A DNA stretch of 59,637 nt, filler included. It is 8 parts of 8 records of this genome, joined end to end, with 100 filler letters (N's around TTAATTAATTAA, not from the genome) between each part and the next. Parts side by side here need not be neighbours in the genome. Positions count along the whole stretch, not along the records: positions 31,171 to 36,482 come from SRR31147125_61692; 7 more parts are not named here. One strand, given 5' to 3'. The notes under the pieces are model-generated. The model did no database searches. It was not told the DNA's origin and saw nothing but the letters and a program-made list of their open reading frames with translations. Made by a program: the position numbers and the translations under genes. Positions 14,041-54,133 of this stretch are shown piece by piece; positions within the stretch are counted from its first letter, which is position 1, and each line of letters begins with the position of its first letter.

Positions 14041-14140
14041 NNNNNNNNNNNNNNNNNNNNNNNNNNNNNNNNNNNNNNNNNNNNTTAATTAATTAANNNN
14101 NNNNNNNNNNNNNNNNNNNNNNNNNNNNNNNNNNNNNNNN
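14041..14140. other. Artificial contig spacer (N44-TTAATTAATTAA-N44)
   Basis: Six-frame stop linker flanked by Ns; gene style and base composition change across it. Confidence 0.98.
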
Positions 14141-21132: not shown

Positions 21133-21232
21133 NNNNNNNNNNNNNNNNNNNNNNNNNNNNNNNNNNNNNNNNNNNNTTAATTAATTAANNNNNNNNNNNN
21201 NNNNNNNNNNNNNNNNNNNNNNNNNNNNNNNN
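21133..21232. other. Artificial contig spacer
   Basis: N44-TTAATTAATTAA-N44. Confidence 0.98.
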
Positions 21233-31070: not shown

Positions 31071-31170
31071 NNNNNNNNNNNNNNNNNNNNNNNNNNNNNN
31101 NNNNNNNNNNNNNNTTAATTAATTAANNNNNNNNNNNNNNNNNNNNNNNNNNNNNNNNNNNNNNNNNNNN
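31071..31170. other. Artificial contig spacer
   Basis: N44-TTAATTAATTAA-N44. Confidence 0.98.
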
Positions 31171-31171
31171 A

Positions 31172-32473
31172 AAATGCATTATTGCGGTCAAGGATATTTC
31201 AGGATCCGGCTTCTGCATGAGGGAGGAAGAGAGGAAGTCGGTCCTTATCCCAGGGCTTATTCTACCGGATATGGAACTGGGGCTCCCCGGAGGCCGGGCT
31301 CTGAAATGCAGGGTTCAGATCATCTATCGAAAACCGGACAATGAGGATGTCCGTCCTTCGGTTATCTGCGGAGCCGCCATTCTGGACATGAATCCTGTTC
31401 AGCACGCCCTGCTTCTCAACTTCATCCATCAGGAAAAGGACAGCCATGCCTTTGTCTGTAACCCGGTGGATACCTCAGCCCTCTGGAAGTTCTTTTTTGA
31501 ATCCGGTTTTATCTATCCCGAGAAGTATAAACATCTCTCCCGGAACAGGGACAGGATCAGGGAACTTTACGACAAACTCTATACAAAGAGTCCGGGAATC
31601 GCCCGCCACTTCATTTATCAGGAAGGGACCCATATCCAGGGCCATATGTCCATGCTCCGCTCCTACGAAGAAGCCTGGCTCCTCCATCACCATGCCGCCA
31701 GTACAAACCACAGCCAGAATGCCGGCCTCCACGTGCTTAATCAGGTCGGAAGCTTCGGGAACAATTGTCACCGGATTAAAAGCCTGCATATGCTCTACCT
31801 GATGTGCTACTACCGGGAGGAAAATAAATTCCCCCGCCGGGTCTTCGGCGATATCGCCCGGAAGATCGGCAATCCCTCCCACTGCTCACTGGATACCTGG
31901 GCTTACTATCATATATACAGAGATGCTGCCGGTTCCGTCGCGGCGAGCAAGCCGATTCTTCCGGAAGGCTGGTCTCTGAAAAAAACAGGCAAAGGGGATC
32001 TCAAAGATTTGGACTGTTTTTATAGAAAACACTCCAATGGTCTCCTTCTCAAAGCCATGAACCTGACAGGTGCCCGCTCCTCGGATGCAGAACTCTATAC
32101 CGAGTATGAGAAAGCAGGATTCAACAGGTCTATTGAACTTTTTTCCCTGAAGAAGGAGGGAGAGGTCCATGGGGTTATCATGGCGGATCAGTCGGAAACA
32201 GGACTCAATATGTCCGATCTCACAAACTCCATAAAAATCTTCATCACCAATACGAAGGAACTGACACAGGAGATTGTAAACACGGCTTTAAATACTGTTT
32301 CCGACCGTTTCAATGAAGAAACCAGAATCCCTGTTCTAATGTTCCCGGAGGAAGCGGCAACAGAGTTTGATATTCCCGTAGAAAAAAGCTATACCTTATG
32401 GGTGATTAATATGGAAGCAAGTGATACCTATTTCAGATATTTAAAAACTCTCTTAAAAATAATTCATCATTGA
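31172..32473 (+). CDS. PilZ-domain protein with large C-terminal domain (possibly GNAT-like); 5'-truncated
   Basis: Frame is open from the contig edge: KCIIAVKDISGSGFCM carries the PilZ DxSxxG motif; the PilZ barrel ends near CGAAILDM; an alpha/beta domain follows (LWKFFFESGFIYPEKY...GHMSMLRSYEEAWLLHHHAA). Confidence 0.7.
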   Translation, partial: KCIIAVKDISGSGFCMREEERKSVLIPGLILPDMELGLPGGRALKCRVQIIYRKPDNEDVRPSVICGAAILDMNPVQHALLLNFIHQEKDSHAFVCNPVDTSALWKFFFESGFIYPEKYKHLSRNRDRIRELYDKLYTKSPGIARHFIYQEGTHIQGHMSMLRSYEEAWLLHHHAASTNHSQNAGLHVLNQVGSFGNNCHRIKSLHMLYLMCYYREENKFPRRVFGDIARKIGNPSHCSLDTWAYYHIYRDAAGSVAASKPILPEGWSLKKTGKGDLKDLDCFYRKHSNGLLLKAMNLTGARSSDAELYTEYEKAGFNRSIELFSLKKEGEVHGVIMADQSETGLNMSDLTNSIKIFITNTKELTQEIVNTALNTVSDRFNEETRIPVLMFPEEAATEFDIPVEKSYTLWVINMEASDTYFRYLKTLLKIIHH

Positions 32474-32497
32474 CTCAGATTCAATTAGGAGAGCTTA

Positions 32498-34449
32498 ATG
32501 AAGGAGCTTGAGACATTTTCACGGCCCTACAACAGCCGGATTATTGATGCTTATGTAAAACTGATATCGGTCCAATATCCGTCGGTGGATATTGAGGCCC
32601 TGCTGAAATTCTCGGACATGGAGACCTTTCAGGTAAAGGATCAGACCCACTGGTTTACCCAGGAGCAGGTCGATCTCTTTTACGAACGGGCCGTCCACCT
32701 GACGGGGAACAAAAACCTGGCGAGAGAAGCAGGACAGTATTTCGCCTCATTTCAGGAAGAGAACCTGATGAAGAAGTATTTCCTCAGCCTGATCGGACCG
32801 GTCCACGCCTTTGAGAAGGTGGAGTATGTTTCCAGAAGTTTTACAAATTACACTGAATATAAAGTAAATCGGCTCAGCAGGAATTCTGTGGAGGTGGAAA
32901 TCCACCTGAAGGGGGATGTCGAAGAAAAACCCTATCAATGTGAAAACAGAATCGGAATGCTTGAAGCCATCCCCATGCTCTTCAACCCCAAACTTCCCCG
33001 GGTGGAACACCCCAAATGCCGCTTCAGGGGAGACAAGGTCTGCCGTTACATCATCAGCTGGGAAAATTCCCGCTCCTCTGTTGCCAGAAGGATCGAAAAT
33101 TCGCCCTTCCCCTGATCGCAGCCGTTAATATAGGTCTGGCATTTTACGCCCCGTCGACCACTCTTCGCTATATCTTTCCCGTGTCCGCTTTCCTTTCCAT
33201 CCTTTTCTACGCCCTTGTAAAACGGCGGGAGGTCAAGGAGTTGAACAGCAAAGTGAGGTCGGCCCTGAAAACCACCGATGAACTGATTCATCAGATAGAT
33301 CTGAATCACAACAATACAAAGATCTCCCAGGAGCTGGGTGAAGCAGTCAATATCGAGTTATCCGTCGACTCCCTCCTCCAGAAGGCTATTCGAATCATAG
33401 AAAAACGGCTGGAGTTCGACCGGGGACTTATCCTCCTGGCTAACGGGGATAAATCAGCCCTGGAGTTTAAAACAGGTTACGGGTATCATGCAGGCTACCA
33501 GGAACTCCTCAATACTACGGCCTTCAACCTCAACAACCCCCAGTCCCGGGGAGTGTTTGTCGTCTGTTTCAGGGAACAGCGGGCCTTCCTGATCAACAAT
33601 ATAGAGGATATCAAAAAGGACCTGAGCCTTCGCTCCATTGCCTTCACTAGAAGCCTGGGCAGTAAGTCCTTTATCTGCTGTCCCATCGTCTGCGATAGTG
33701 AACCCATCGGCATCATATCCGTCGATAACCTTCACTCCCAGCGGCCCCTTATCCAGACCGACATCAGCCAGCTATTGGCCATTGCCTCGCTCATCGGTAT
33801 CGGGATCAAAAAGGTGAGGCTCCTGCAGGCCCGGGAACTTCAGTTCCAGTCGATCATCAAGGTCCTGGCCTCGTCGATTGATGCCCGGGACCCGCTTACC
33901 GCCGGTCATTCGGAAAAGGTGGCGGAGTATTCGGATGAGATTGCCCGTCGGATGGGATTTTCAAACCAGGAGCGTTCGGTTATCCGAATAGCCTCCCTGC
34001 TTCACGACTATGGGAAAATCGGAGTTCCCGACGATATCCTCAAGAAAAACGGCCAGCTGACCCTGGATGAATTCGAGATCATCAAGACCCACGCGGAGAA
34101 AACCAGTGATATCCTGGAACAGATAAACTTTGAGGATAACTACTCCTCCATCCCCGCCATTGCCGGCGCCCACCATGAAAGGCTTGACGGCCGGGGATAT
34201 CCCAAAGGACTGAAGGGAGGTGAAATACCCCTGGCCTCCCGCATTATAGCCACTGCCGATTTCTACGATGCCATCACATCCCAGCGTCACTACCGGAATC
34301 CTATGCCCAACGGAGAGGCCCTCTCCATCCTGCGACAGGAGGCCGGAGCCCACCTGGACCCCAAGGTGGTCAAAGTTTTTTGTGAATATCTTGCTGATGA
34401 ACAGAAGCAGTCTGCAGAAGATCAGGAAAAAAGAATTCTCAGCTTTTAG
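32498..34449 (+). CDS. V4R/HNOB-like sensor-2TM-GAF-HD-GYP c-di-GMP phosphodiesterase; one apparent frameshift near 33093
   Basis: CENRIGMLE...VEHPKCRFRGDKVCRY (V4R Cys pattern), two TM helices, GAF (FICCPIV...IGIISVDN), GHSEKVA, LHDYGKIG, HHERLDGRGYPKGL. Confidence 0.85.
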
Positions 34450-35262
34450 TGAACTCTGCTTTCGGAGTTTTTCCCCGGCAGATAATAAGGGGGGTATAGG
34501 TAAAACGGCGGGGATCCTCAAAGAAATCCCTGCACTCCTGGTAGAACTCCTTGAAACCCCCGGGGTATTCAGGGTAGGTGTAGCCCGAATCCCGGCCGGC
34601 AACAGCCACTTTCTGAAGCCAGTTAAAGGCCTCCCCCTCTTTCAGTTCACCGAAAATCAGGTGATGGTGTCCGACCCGAACATCGATATCCTCCAGGTTT
34701 AAATCGTACATATGGGTGTAGAGTTTCCGGCCGGCGTACGGGTCAAAATCATGATCCCTCTCCAATGCCGCAATACTGGATTCAATAGCCTTCTTCAAAC
34801 GGGGAGAGTGGCCGTAATGATTCATGCTGTTGTGATCCAGATCGATAAGACAGAGGATTCCCCCGGGAGTCAGAAGTTCTGAAAAACGGCGGACGAGTTC
34901 CGGTTGAGACTCTCTGTGATATTCCAGAAAAACCGGCACCAGATGAAATCAAATCGCCCGAGGTCCGAGAGATTTCCGTAGATATCCCGCTCTTCAAATC
35001 GGATTCCCTCACCTCCGTACGTCTTACGGGCGAACTGAATACGTTCGGAAGAGCGATCAACACCCACCACCTGACCATCAGCTCCCACAAGCTCTTTCAG
35101 AAAAGAGGTGGTTCTCCCGCTGCCGCATCCGAAATCCGCAACCCGCATCCCGGGCTCCAGTCCCGCCCAGCCAGCCTGCTCACAAACGGCCTTAAACCCG
35201 GTTTTCTTCTCAAGCCTGGTAAGCTCATCACAGCTTTCCATTATATAGGACGACTTTTCCAT
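34439..35262 (-). CDS. Class I SAM-dependent methyltransferase; one apparent frameshift near 34930
   Basis: VADFGCGSG motif I, VGVDRS, FDFIWCRF/FLEY, LTPGGILCLIDLD across ORFs 34870-35286 and 34439-34939. Confidence 0.85.
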
Positions 35263-35266
35263 TCCG

Positions 35267-36482
35267 CTATCTATCCTCATCTGCAAGTGTGTGTGGAAAC
35301 TTTGAGTAATACCAGGATTTCATCCAGCTCCTCTTCATGGCCCGGTTGAACATAAGCAGACAGAGCAGGCGAACAGGAATCCTGATGGCCGCCAGGGTCT
35401 TTATCGCCCGCCGGATCATCCCTGTTCCGGAATAGATCCTTTTCTTGATGTAGTTGTCTCCCCGGTAGACATTTTCTGCCGTAATCCCTTCTACCCGGTG
35501 AACCACCCTGGAGAGCCTGTACTGCGCCCAGTCCTTAGGAAAATCCTTCTGGACCAGTCGATCTTCGGCCTCCATCTGATCGAAGAGCTCGGTACCGGGC
35601 AGGGGCGTGAGGATGGCAATCTGAACAACATCGATCCCCGACCGAATGAGAAAGGACGAGAACTCCCGGTAGTAGGAGGGGGATTCAAAATCATTCCCGA
35701 TGATAAATCCTCCCATGACACCTATGCCGAAGCGGTGAAACCCCTTTACCACATTCCGGTAGTTATCCACCCCGATTTCAAAATTCACGCCCTTATGCAG
35801 CTGCTTCAAACCATCCTGATCGATGGTTTCAAAACCGACAAAGGCGATAAAACAGCCCGATTGGGATGCCAGCCGCAGGACCTCCGGATCTTTAACAGCG
35901 TTTATGGAAGTCTGCATCCACCACCGTTTGTTCATCTTCCGTTCAATCATCCCCCGGAAGATGGCCTTGGCGCGCTCCCGGCTGGCAGAGGTATTTCCAA
36001 TCAGATTATCGTCAAGGAAGGCGATATACTTCCCCGGCAGGGTTTCCAGCTCATCCAGAACATCCTCCGCCGTCCTCTGCCGGAATTCACGGCCCAGATA
36101 GCGTGTGACGGAACAGAAGGTACAGGCAAAGGGGCATCCCCGGGATGTCTGTATAGACTGCCAGAGGTAACGTGGGTCGAGGACATCACGCCGCGGCCGG
36201 GGCGGAGAATCCTTAAGGTCAATCTGTTTCCCCCGATAAATCTTTTTCAGGTCTCCGGCTTCGAAATCCTCCAGAACCCGGGGCCAGATCTCCTCCCCCT
36301 CGCCGACGACCAGGACATCGGTAAAATTCTGAACCTCATCGGTCACCATGGAGGCATGAATCCCTCCCATGACCACGGGGATACCCGCCTCCCGGTAGAT
36401 TCGGGAAATTTCATATCCCCGGTTTATACTGCTGGTAAACCCGGTAATACCGACGAGATCGGCGGATTCAAATTCAAAGGGG
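35267..36482 (-). CDS. B12-binding-domain radical SAM protein (5'-truncated)
   Basis: DLVGITG...VVMGGIHAS...VGEGE cobalamin-binding region; SRGCPFACTFC CxxxCxxC; FLDDN, GFET, LTPLPGT. Confidence 0.9.
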
Positions 36483-36582
36483 NNNNNNNNNNNNNNNNNN
36501 NNNNNNNNNNNNNNNNNNNNNNNNNNTTAATTAATTAANNNNNNNNNNNNNNNNNNNNNNNNNNNNNNNNNNNNNNNNNNNN
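36483..36582. other. Artificial contig spacer
   Basis: N44-TTAATTAATTAA-N44. Confidence 0.98.
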
Positions 36583-41752: not shown

Positions 41753-41852
41753 NNNNNNNNNNNNNNNNNNNNNNNNNNNNNNNNNNNNNNNNNNNNTTAA
41801 TTAATTAANNNNNNNNNNNNNNNNNNNNNNNNNNNNNNNNNNNNNNNNNNNN
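41753..41852. other. Artificial contig spacer
   Basis: N44-TTAATTAATTAA-N44. Confidence 0.98.
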
Positions 41853-48390: not shown

Positions 48391-48490
48391 NNNNNNNNNN
48401 NNNNNNNNNNNNNNNNNNNNNNNNNNNNNNNNNNTTAATTAATTAANNNNNNNNNNNNNNNNNNNNNNNNNNNNNNNNNNNNNNNNNNNN
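48391..48490. other. Artificial contig spacer
   Basis: N44-TTAATTAATTAA-N44. Confidence 0.98.
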
Positions 48491-54033: not shown

Positions 54034-54133
54034 NNNNNNNNNNNNNNNNNNNNNNNNNNNNNNNNNNNNNNNNNNNNTTAATTAATTAANNNNNNNNNNN
54101 NNNNNNNNNNNNNNNNNNNNNNNNNNNNNNNNN
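54034..54133. other. Artificial contig spacer
   Basis: N44-TTAATTAATTAA-N44. Confidence 0.98.

Follow-up and report, generated by a model that had tools for sequence, protein, structure and literature searches.

A PilZ-tandem-GNAT protein and its methyltransferase, radical SAM and H-NOX-like sensor partners: a likely functional module

What might join a PilZ protein with an enzyme-like C-terminal domain, a membrane-anchored HD-GYP protein, a methyltransferase and a B12-binding radical S-adenosylmethionine (SAM) enzyme whose genes lie side by side? The question is raised by genes 1 to 4 at positions 31172-36482 of a stretch of 59,637 nucleotides (the window, Table 1). The original prediction, made from the sequence alone, proposed that a synthase gated by cyclic di-GMP (c-di-GMP) and two tailoring enzymes make an acyl or lipid signal that the HD-GYP phosphodiesterase senses. 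The four genes and their spacings (24 bp, an 11-bp overlap and 4 bp) are where that prediction placed them, and the motifs it quoted turn out to be family invariants: LWxFFFxxGFIYPxKY in gene 1 and YNSRII...HWFTQxQ in the sensor of gene 2. We consider it likely that the four genes form one conserved functional module with the enzyme and sensor roles described below, a reading that implies no particular product. They are treated as one unit because of their folds, motifs and gene order, and because of their co-occurrence across two phyla and in a diverged second version.

Folds and conserved residues of the four gene products

The reading frame of gene 1 is open from 31172, the first base of its contig, to a stop at 32473. 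Its relatives are 680-716 residues long and align end to end with up to 72% identity, so about 250 N-terminal residues are missing from it. We modeled the 433 encoded residues with a 113-sequence alignment, which gave a predicted local distance difference test score (pLDDT) of 91.9 and a predicted TM-score of 0.91. Residues 1-92 of the model match PilZ barrels (MrkH, PDB code 5ejl, Z 8.9, root-mean-square deviation (rmsd) 2.2 across 90 aligned residues; YcgR, 5y6f, Z 8.6). The D/N-x-S-x-x-G motif of PilZ domains is present as DISGSG at residues 8-13: across the 113 relatives its first position is D in 103 and N in 9, with S in 110 and G in all 113. The Pfam PilZ model (PF07238) does not match the contig fragment; it matches all six full-length relatives tested (23.2-33.4 bits, cutoff 22.5), in which Pfam finds nothing else. 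Binding of c-di-GMP by this part of the protein is probable.

Residues from about 88 to 430 form a tandem GNAT fold. The best structural match is a histidine acetyltransferase (9emd, Z 14.1, rmsd 4.4, 270 aligned residues), and further tandem or double GNATs match at Z 9-11.5 (VIA-align). Foldseek returned 219 PDB chains at E ≤ 1e-3; most of the rows shown are GNATs of tandem or double-domain type, including glucosamine N-acetyltransferase (5kf1, E 2.4e-10), VipF, MAB_4324, Eis and N-myristoyltransferase; PatZ is also among the tandem-GNAT matches. The enzyme-like C-terminal domain that had been predicted is thus a tandem GNAT of catalytic type, with a first lobe that is almost invariant across the 113 sequences. 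Most of the 26 invariant residues of gene 1 lie in this lobe, within LWxFFFxxGFIYPxKY, HFIY, WxxHHHA, an A-G-L loop, CYxR and NxFP, on elements that presumably form the acyl-CoA and substrate site, as in other GNATs. The pyrophosphate-binding loop of GNATs, Q/R-x-x-G-x-G/A, follows strand 4; in the family of gene 1, at least 90% of the sequences keep G185, which sits within A-G-L directly behind the WxxHHHA strand, as read from the alignment rather than from a superposition. Many tandem GNATs combine one active lobe with one structural lobe. We infer the same division here, because the invariants concentrate in the first lobe and the second lacks the glycine loop.

Several observations weigh against reading gene 1 as a c-di-GMP-gated acyltransferase. 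The arginine motif of PilZ domains, RxxxR, sits about 20-30 residues ahead of D/N-x-S-x-x-G; in gene 1 it would lie before the contig start, and so is absent from the window. In the relatives it is an R-rich variant (R326, K/R330, R333 and R336, with R333 and R336 in 112 of 113); only some, such as the family member P0002, have the canonical RRxxxR, and the Pfam alignment of the motif varies between relatives. The absence of the glycine loop from the second GNAT lobe, also an alignment reading, belongs here too. Moreover, no Pfam or NCBIfam GNAT family matches the protein even at E ≤ 1, so the case for catalysis is built on fold and conservation.

The family has escaped curated collections in other ways as well. 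NCBIfam has no family for the PilZ-GNAT protein, and a sequence-profile search of the PDB with its alignment gave 0 matches at E ≤ 1. In the ESM Atlas, the GNAT part matched only clusters annotated as hypothetical proteins; one of these has 18% Acetyltransf_1 (score 0.86), which we regard as a lead only. Searched alone, the GNAT part returned 662 clusters at 50% identity, 239 of them at E ≤ 1e-30, and in nearly all of the 150 cluster representatives listed it lies C-terminally in a protein of about 680-720 residues. Extra domains were checked in the three longest of these representatives, and two, P0161 (1209 residues) and P0173 (1220 residues), have NERD and Ser/Thr protein-kinase domains N-terminal to the PilZ-tandem-GNAT part.

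Gene 2 starts 24 bp past the stop of gene 1, and its relatives are encoded by one open reading frame (ORF) of about 650 residues. The predicted HD-GYP phosphodiesterase is borne out by intact signatures in the 477-residue C-terminal ORF, LLHDYGK (residue 330) and DGRGYP (residue 394). The N-terminal domain of 191 residues belongs to no Pfam family, with no match to V4R (PF02830) at E ≤ 5 and none to HNOB; its weak Pfam matches are DUF2378 (E 0.046) and Arabinose_bd (E 0.15), and NCBIfam has no family for it. A model built with 44 relatives (pLDDT 89.9) retrieved H-NOX or guanylate-cyclase chains in every Foldseek row shown at E ≤ 1e-3 (TM-score 0.53-0.71). In VIA-align it matches H-NOX proteins at Z 15.8 (rmsd 3.0, 170 aligned residues), 15.7 and 14.1, followed by the N-domain of Mycobacterium tuberculosis VirS, a non-haem, drug-binding domain (Z 12.8, residues 8-191). 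V4R-type proteins rank below both and cover only residues from about 42 to 191 of the model (MJ_1460, Z 8.6, 124 aligned; PoxR, Z 8.6; DmpR, Z 8.7). The V4R-like pocket of the original prediction therefore holds at most at the level of the wider H-NOX/VirS-N/V4R fold group; the domain itself is H-NOX-like.

Sequence-level matches in the PDB agree: there are 11, all to H-NOX proteins, at E 0.026-1. All 44 sensor sequences have C148, H171, C174 and C182, and the last three align with H161, C164 and C172 of the zinc site of Shewanella H-NOX (4u9b). No histidine is conserved at positions 90-140, in the helix that would carry the proximal, iron-ligating histidine of an H-NOX domain; position 103 is K in 12, T in 7, N in 6 and R in 5 of the 44 sequences. 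The propionate-binding motif of H-NOX domains, YxSxR, lies just before the first zinc cysteine. No such motif precedes the first zinc cysteine of the sensor: the window copy has D-V-E-E-K-P-Y-Q at residues 140-147, 38 of the 44 sequences have G at position 140, and E143 and Q147 do not vary. The other invariants are mostly polar (Y11, S13, D48, W52, Q55, Q57, E132, E143, Q147 and R151). A haem-binding H-NOX reading was rejected: with no conserved proximal histidine, no YxSxR and no Pfam HNOB match, haem binding is unlikely. The sensor is thus a haem-less H-NOX-like domain and a plausible small-molecule pocket, but by sequence it is no V4R domain.

The end of gene 3 at 34439 gives its 11-bp overlap with the HD-GYP stop, and if the gene starts at MEKSSY (35262), 4 bp separate it from the stop codon of the radical-SAM gene (35267-35269). 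Its N-terminal part in the window matches Methyltransf_31, Methyltransf_25 and Methyltransf_11 (E 2.7e-13 to 2.4e-9) and has a DFGCGSG loop; its relatives are single ORFs of about 270 residues, and a full-length copy from the locus L001 matches a methyltransferase model at E 1.5e-14. A 56-sequence profile of gene 3 pointed to no specific family, and its NCBIfam matches all fall far under their cutoffs. The nearest solved structures are an uncharacterized archaeal methyltransferase (3mgg, 1.7e-17), phosphoethanolamine N-methyltransferase (1.8e-15) and juvenile-hormone acid methyltransferase (1.9e-14, positions 37-247 of 270), with the peptide methyltransferases LahSB, BamL and CypM, and PCMT, lower down at E 1e-8 to 1e-5.

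Gene 4 matches Radical_SAM at 54.1 bits, with CPFACTFC in its translation. The B12-binding domain falls just short in the truncated gene (31.3 bits, cutoff 32.1), and in the full-length copy from L001 it reaches 45.4 bits. The gene reaches no NCBIfam equivalog: the best matches, to HpnR (88.5 bits, cutoff 650), HpnJ, ApyD and BchE, each score less than one sixth of the cutoff. In one Spirochaetales metagenome-assembled genome the radical-SAM gene is split into ORFs of 237 and 236 residues (L022:14069-15479), which suggests a frameshift or an assembly error.

Linkage and co-occurrence across genomes

With one genome scanned per species, relatives of gene 1 were found at no fewer than 447 loci of species-representative genomes (a lower bound), of which the best 80 were analyzed. 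These 80 come from Spirochaetota (the closest, 51-72% identity), Desulfobacterales, Geobacterales, Desulfobulbia and Desulfatiglandales, with Geomonas (G. silvestris and G. limicola among them), Desulfurivibrio and Desulfatitalea as cultured carriers. Clustering of their ORFs found only three widely shared families: PilZ-GNAT (79), methyltransferase (59) and sensor/HD-GYP (49). Of the 80 loci, 58 have 4 kb or more of downstream sequence, and in these tblastn detected within 6 kb of the PilZ-GNAT gene a methyltransferase in 50, the sensor in 38, a radical SAM gene in 7 and no partner in 2. The original prediction proposed to look for methyltransferase, acyl carrier protein (ACP) or fatty-acyl genes as recurring neighbors; the methyltransferase does recur, and neither an ACP gene nor a fatty-acyl gene is a recurrent neighbor at the 80 loci. 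The internal order is shuffled: PilZ-GNAT (+), HD-GYP (+), methyltransferase (-); PilZ-GNAT (+), methyltransferase (-), HD-GYP (-); PilZ-GNAT (+), radical SAM (-), methyltransferase (-); and others. Around the set lie unrelated housekeeping genes, and which ones they are depends on the lineage (M48 peptidase, S1 protein, AsmA, ABC/FtsX, YchF, aldolase, HemD/CobA, MoaA, NUDIX and others).

At the level of whole genomes, we surveyed an even sample of 301 genomes of Desulfobacterota, the phylum to which one carrier belongs. PilZ-GNAT was found in 33, the sensor domain in 30 and the methyltransferase in 28. PilZ-GNAT and sensor occur together in 28 genomes, PilZ-GNAT without the sensor in 5, the sensor without PilZ-GNAT in 2 and neither in 266; 26 genomes have PilZ-GNAT and methyltransferase, and the three occur together in 23. 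Fisher values for co-occurrence are 1e-23 to 1e-32, and the same pattern is seen in different orders. Two of the five PilZ-GNAT genomes that gave no sensor match have the gene at a contig start, and the other three are from a distant group. A radical SAM gene with 53-58% identity to gene 4 was found in 7 of the 301 genomes, all 7 with PilZ-GNAT. Co-occurrence across genomes, which had been named beforehand as the test of functional linkage, was thus found, and it extends across phyla.

A deeply diverged second version of the module also exists. Its PilZ-GNAT proteins have 950-967 residues (E about 1e-44) and its methyltransferases match at E 1e-36 to 1e-44; an H-NOX-like sensor kinase adjoins them (hhalign probability 98.2%, E 2.9e-14). 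One genome with this version has a radical SAM protein 55% identical to gene 4, and the other has a different B12 enzyme, 29% identical.

The sensor need not be adjacent, nor need it carry an HD-GYP domain. In five of five genomes without an adjacent sensor, the H-NOX-like/GAF module was found elsewhere (E about 1e-75), fused to PAS-HisKA-HATPase-REC in proteins of about 960 residues. In the 301-genome survey, many sensor matches lie in ORFs of about 940-1250 residues, often beside PilZ-GNAT (for example in genomes G202, G203, G269 and G299). Since the output is HD-GYP or a histidine kinase in different genomes, the sensor partnership is independent of output: what is conserved is the association of the enzymes with the input module of the sensor, not with HD-GYP as such. 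That the partnership follows the input module whatever its output argues that the ligand of the sensor is tied to the chemistry of the enzymes. A c-di-GMP feedback loop, which the original prediction had offered as the logic of the circuit, cannot be a general feature, as the same sensor sits on a PAS-histidine kinase-receiver protein in many genomes that carry the enzymes.

Against a single four-gene module stand a number of these and other counts. The radical SAM gene is near PilZ-GNAT in only 7 of 58 loci, and B12 radical-SAM paralogs are common, with 104 of 301 genomes having one at E ≤ 1e-50. Genes 3 and 4 are convergent to genes 1 and 2 in the window, so the four are not one operon. At the thresholds used, 5 of the 33 PilZ-GNAT genomes gave no sensor match and 7 gave no methyltransferase match. 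The Fisher values ignore shared ancestry and hence overstate independence. Finally, with a kinase as the sensor output in many genomes, degradation of c-di-GMP is not essential to the partnership.

Some loci have additional neighbors. An outer-membrane channel of the FadL/TodX type, a type that passes hydrophobic compounds, lies beside the methyltransferase in 6 of the 80 loci (L019, L020, L031, L036, L047 and L048), mostly in Geobacterales. A GDSL-like lipase/acylhydrolase is encoded downstream of the methyltransferase in 8 of 80 (ORF cluster 11; for example L023:17592-18287); these loci form one Desulfobacterales synteny group with the order methyltransferase, S1 protein, ABC, FtsX, GDSL, and the association is lineage-limited. 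Two Geomonas loci have a second copy of the H-NOX-like sensor on the minus strand, about 4 kb upstream of PilZ-GNAT (L020:5742-6287 and L036:5739-6284), besides the downstream HD-GYP copy. All four genes are clustered in L094 (G081:C6:80000-92000), where the sensor, methyltransferase and PilZ-GNAT genes run the same way and the radical SAM gene diverges from them; in that genome only, genes for a short-chain dehydrogenase and an enoyl-CoA hydratase flank the cluster. In L092 (3080-4402) and L093 (4217-5512), the H-NOX-like sensor kinase gene and the radical SAM gene are separated by that of a PmbA/TldD-type metallopeptidase. The peptidase was considered as a fifth member of the module and rejected, being present in only 2 of 94 loci.

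Assembly of the contig and composition of the window

The window consists of eight pieces, with G+C of 0.39 to 0.58, cut by TTAATTAATTAA inside runs of N; seven such linkers are seen where 0.01 would be expected by chance. The four genes fill exactly one whole contig (5312 bases, G+C 0.51). Because the contigs were joined artificially, the genes to the left (DUF218 and KefF/KefC-like, on another contig) and to the right (7TM-HD, YbeY, CorC and Lnt-like) are not neighbors of the locus.

Table 1 Features of the four-gene contig and artificial linkers in the window.
Feature	Position	Strand	Remark
Gene 1, (PilZ)n-tandem-GNAT (P0001), 5'-truncated	31172..32473	+	last 433 codons of a protein of roughly 680 residues
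PilZ beta-barrel, C-terminal part (residues 1-92), D-I-S-G-S-G motif	31172..31447	+	structure match
Tandem GNAT fold (residues 93-433)	31448..32470	+	structure match, conservation
Gene 2, sensor-hydrophobic segments-GAF-HD-GYP	32498..34449	+	frame shift: one base missing behind 33096
Haem-less H-NOX-like sensor domain, 191 residues	32498..33070	+	invariant C148/H171/C174/C182
Two hydrophobic segments, probable membrane anchor	33100..33219	+	second, 33163-33219: Kyte-Doolittle 1.81 over 19 residues; first weaker
GAF domain	33364..33807	+	PF01590, E 6.6e-11
HD-GYP domain	33862..34368	+	PF13487 (HD_5), E 1.2e-40, 139.5 bits
Gene 3, class I SAM methyltransferase, about 270-280 residues	34439..35286	-	likely start 35262; frame shift: base missing behind 34927 (coding-strand T run)
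Gene 4, B12-binding radical-SAM enzyme, 5'-truncated	35267..36482	-	domain matches
Radical-SAM core of gene 4, CxxxCxxC motif	35663-36154	-	Pfam
B12-binding domain of gene 4	36278-36469	-	Pfam
Linker (N run, TTAATTAATTAA, N run)	31071..31171		start of the four-gene contig
Linker	36483..36582		end of the four-gene contig
All linkers	14041-14140, 21133-21232, 31071-31171, 36483-36582, 41753-41852, 48391-48490, 54034-54133		artificial

The PilZ and radical-SAM genes are each cut at the 5' end by the ends of the contig. Two further genes are broken in the window: gene 2 reads in two frames (32498-33115 and 33016-34449), as does gene 3 (34870-35286 and 34439-34939), each being a single ORF in relatives. 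The public run X1 contains 98% of the sampled words of the window and is probably its source. Independent Logan contigs of X1 span 32429-36482 in one piece at a depth of about 54, and differ from the window by one substitution (33846, C in the window and T in the X1 contigs, depth 54.1 of 54.1) and two extra bases. An additional G behind 33096 restores the frame of gene 2 (…RRIE-KFALPLIAAVN…), and an additional A behind 34927 restores that of gene 3 (…WCRFF-LEYH…), changing a coding-strand run of T5 to T6; both readings fit the relatives. The extra G at 33096 is also found in run X3, which comes from another study and represents a diverged relative, and run X2 has an extra T three bases beyond that insertion site.

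A pseudogene reading of the two frameshifts was rejected, as the X1 contigs carry the frame-restoring bases: at both sites it is the deposited assembly that is in error. In the organism the four genes are probably all intact, because the X1 assembly is free of the one-base omissions. Since the X1 contigs continue about 14.9 kb and about 4 kb past the two contig ends, the truncations of genes 1 and 4 are assembly limits. For the window itself, this means that apparent pseudogenes are assembly errors and that the whole is a chain of unlinked contigs.

Elsewhere in the window, a large NAD-glutamate dehydrogenase gene on another contig (42220-46549) is split into ORFs of 1108 and 324 residues, the second with GDH_C; this is probably a further assembly error and suggests that the record has more of this kind. 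Two alpha-L-fucosidases and a hybrid two-component regulator with Reg_prop, Y_Y_Y and AraC domains give the low-GC pieces a Bacteroidota-style gene content, and the record may mix organisms. A separate contig (48575-53971) encodes a nonribosomal peptide synthetase fragment made up of condensation, adenylation and carrier domains, and next to it a KAS III-like protein; as far as linkage can tell, this contig is unrelated to the four-gene locus.

Candidate functions and known systems

The mechanism that we infer for the module starts with the PilZ part, which would bind c-di-GMP and thereby control acyl transfer by the first GNAT lobe, on the model of the Myxococcus xanthus protein PixB. The C-terminal tandem GNAT of this multi-PilZ protein would be an acyl-CoA-type transferase, and the class I SAM methyltransferase would act on its substrate or product. 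In the lineage of the window, the B12 radical SAM enzyme, translationally coupled to the methyltransferase, may act on the same molecule. The membrane-anchored sensor, with its haem-less zinc-site H-NOX-like domain and GAF domain, would read a ligand tied to the chemistry of the enzymes and would answer by hydrolysis of c-di-GMP through HD-GYP or, in other genomes, by phosphorelay.

That the four genes merely sit side by side through inherited synteny, as unrelated signaling or housekeeping genes without shared function, is very improbable. The sampled genomes are related, so co-occurrence counts are inflated, and in the commonest arrangement the methyltransferase is convergent and hence not co-transcribed. 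However, both Spirochaetota and several Desulfobacterota orders retain the set, with differing flanks and shuffled internal order; it also persists in a version with only a distantly related PilZ-GNAT protein, and at the genome level where the genes are not adjacent. In the survey of 301 genomes, PilZ-GNAT and sensor are both absent from 266, both present in 28 and found singly in 7. A shared function is therefore preferred here, and the question becomes what the enzymes act on. The full circuit, in which a c-di-GMP-gated GNAT and tailoring enzymes make an N-acylated, methylated small molecule, possibly lipid-like or diffusible, that is the ligand of the H-NOX-like domain, with the phosphodiesterase or kinase closing a feedback loop, is doubtful as a whole. 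It is consistent with a partnership that tracks the sensor input module whether the output is HD-GYP (about 650 residues) or PAS-HisKA-HATPase-REC (about 960 residues), with small-molecule enzymes as the nearest solved relatives of the methyltransferase by sequence, with an amino-acid N-acetyltransferase as the top structural match of the GNAT, with the similarity of the sensor to the ligand-binding VirS N-domain (Z 12.8) and with the FadL/TodX porin beside the methyltransferase in 6 of 80 loci. Yet among the flanking genes of those 80 loci there is no recurrent product, precursor gene, exporter, ACP or fatty-acyl gene, the only lipid-related neighbors found are lineage-limited (FadL/TodX in 6, GDSL lipase in 8), the largely polar invariants of the sensor do not suggest a purely greasy ligand, and fold matches do not give substrates.

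It is also unlikely, in our view, that the enzymes modify a protein or peptide, such that the GNAT acetylates a lysine or N-terminus, the methyltransferase and B12 radical SAM enzyme methylate, and the module is a c-di-GMP-controlled post-translational switch whose target is perhaps the sensor or a partner. PixB acts on motility and development signaling via its acetyltransferase domain (PMC8316039), and the NERD and Ser/Thr protein-kinase domains of P0161 and P0173 would fit a protein target. So would the N-myristoyltransferase, Eis and PatZ matches of the tandem GNAT, the LahSB, BamL, CypM and PCMT matches of the methyltransferase (E 1e-8 to 1e-5), a radical SAM match to a methyl-coenzyme M reductase (MCR) glutamine C-methyltransferase model (1.2e-19, far under cutoff) and the PmbA/TldD-type peptidase between sensor kinase and radical SAM gene in two genomes. 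These matches are all generic, however; kinase fusions are rare, at 2 among the 150 listed representatives (three longest checked), and there is no conserved target or precursor-peptide gene, nor room for one on the contig.

The nearest solved relatives of methyltransferase and GNAT lean to small molecules, the kinase fusions and the biology of PixB lean to proteins, and none of these lines points to a lipid. A small metabolite as substrate has a little less than an even chance, a peptide or protein is rather doubtful, and a substrate of some other kind is possible, if on the unlikely side. A more specific version, that GNAT, methyltransferase and B12 radical SAM enzyme build a new N-acylated, C- and/or O-methylated metabolite, switched by c-di-GMP, that is the ligand of a new class of haem-less H-NOX-like receptors, is tentative and fairly unlikely; for a variant of it in which the enzymes make the non-haem cofactor of the sensor itself, we see only a slight chance. 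If such a metabolite exists, it would belong to a first-messenger/second-messenger circuit that is complete in itself and widespread among anaerobes of the Desulfobacterota and Spirochaetota, with a receptor whose output is c-di-GMP hydrolysis or phosphorelay.

RpfG is an HD-GYP enzyme linked to a signal-synthesis locus, and PhcB is a SAM methyltransferase that makes a methyl-ester signal. The parallels with RpfF/RpfC/RpfG and with PhcB, on which the original prediction drew, are analogies only. Unlike RpfF/RpfC/RpfG, the four-gene contig has no crotonase-type RpfF and no RpfC-type kinase partner; unlike in that diffusible signal factor system, the HD-GYP of the module is fused directly to its sensor, and the candidate synthase is the PilZ-GNAT protein.

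H-NOX sensors are known to partner with c-di-GMP enzymes and kinases. Those of Shewanella, Nostoc and Caldanaerobacter, and soluble guanylate cyclase beta1, share with the gene 2 sensor the fold of the whole domain and the Cys/His zinc quartet, whereas the gene 2 sensor has no conserved proximal histidine, no YxSxR and no Pfam HNOB match. The VirS N-domain (8rcx, 8rcw) resembles it in having a non-haem small-molecule pocket in the same wider fold, and the V4R/XylR-type phenol sensors (DmpR, 6iy8; PoxR, 5fru; MJ_1460, 2oso) may do so too. Neither group has a significant sequence match to the sensor. The V4R matches leave out its N-terminal third and extend over about 125-138 residues, and the output of VirS/V4R-type proteins is a transcription factor, in contrast to the GAF-HD-GYP of gene 2.

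Other PilZ-gated enzymes include cellulose synthase BcsA and Alg44. A cAMP-gated mycobacterial lysine acetyltransferase is cited in the PixB study (PMC8316039). All three are like gene 1 in that a second-messenger receptor domain is fused to or gates a transferase, but their catalytic folds or messengers differ and they are not known to have a methyltransferase, a radical SAM enzyme and a sensor as partners. Among studied proteins the nearest relative is PixB (MXAN_2604) itself, a PilZ-PilZ-GNAT acetyltransferase; its description (PMC8316039) reports c-di-GMP binding in vitro, a requirement for the acetyltransferase domain in function, an unknown substrate and the authors' proposal that c-di-GMP boosts activity. 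PixB and gene 1 both have PilZ domains N-terminal to a GNAT-fold transferase, a likeness at the level of architecture. The domain of PixB was recognized as GNAT family by its authors, whereas gene 1 has a double GNAT of about 340 residues with no Pfam GNAT match; the main text on PixB mentions no methyltransferase or H-NOX-like partner (PMC8316039). Our literature search, which turned up PixB, HfsK and a PilZ-domain survey (10.1101/814665), found no description of the tandem-GNAT/methyltransferase/H-NOX-like set, PixB being the closest.

Effectors of c-di-GMP with enzymatic outputs are few, and the one PilZ-acetyltransferase that has been studied, PixB, is without a known substrate. The PilZ-GNAT family sets itself apart from PixB by its large size, its fixed partners and its dedicated sensor. 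The fixed partners narrow the chemistry to acylation plus methylation, with or without radical methylation, and the sensor has a fold known for gas sensing, here without haem ligands. With cultured carriers in Geomonas and Desulfurivibrio, the module is directly testable. The locus is a new and widespread variant among PilZ-gated enzymes.

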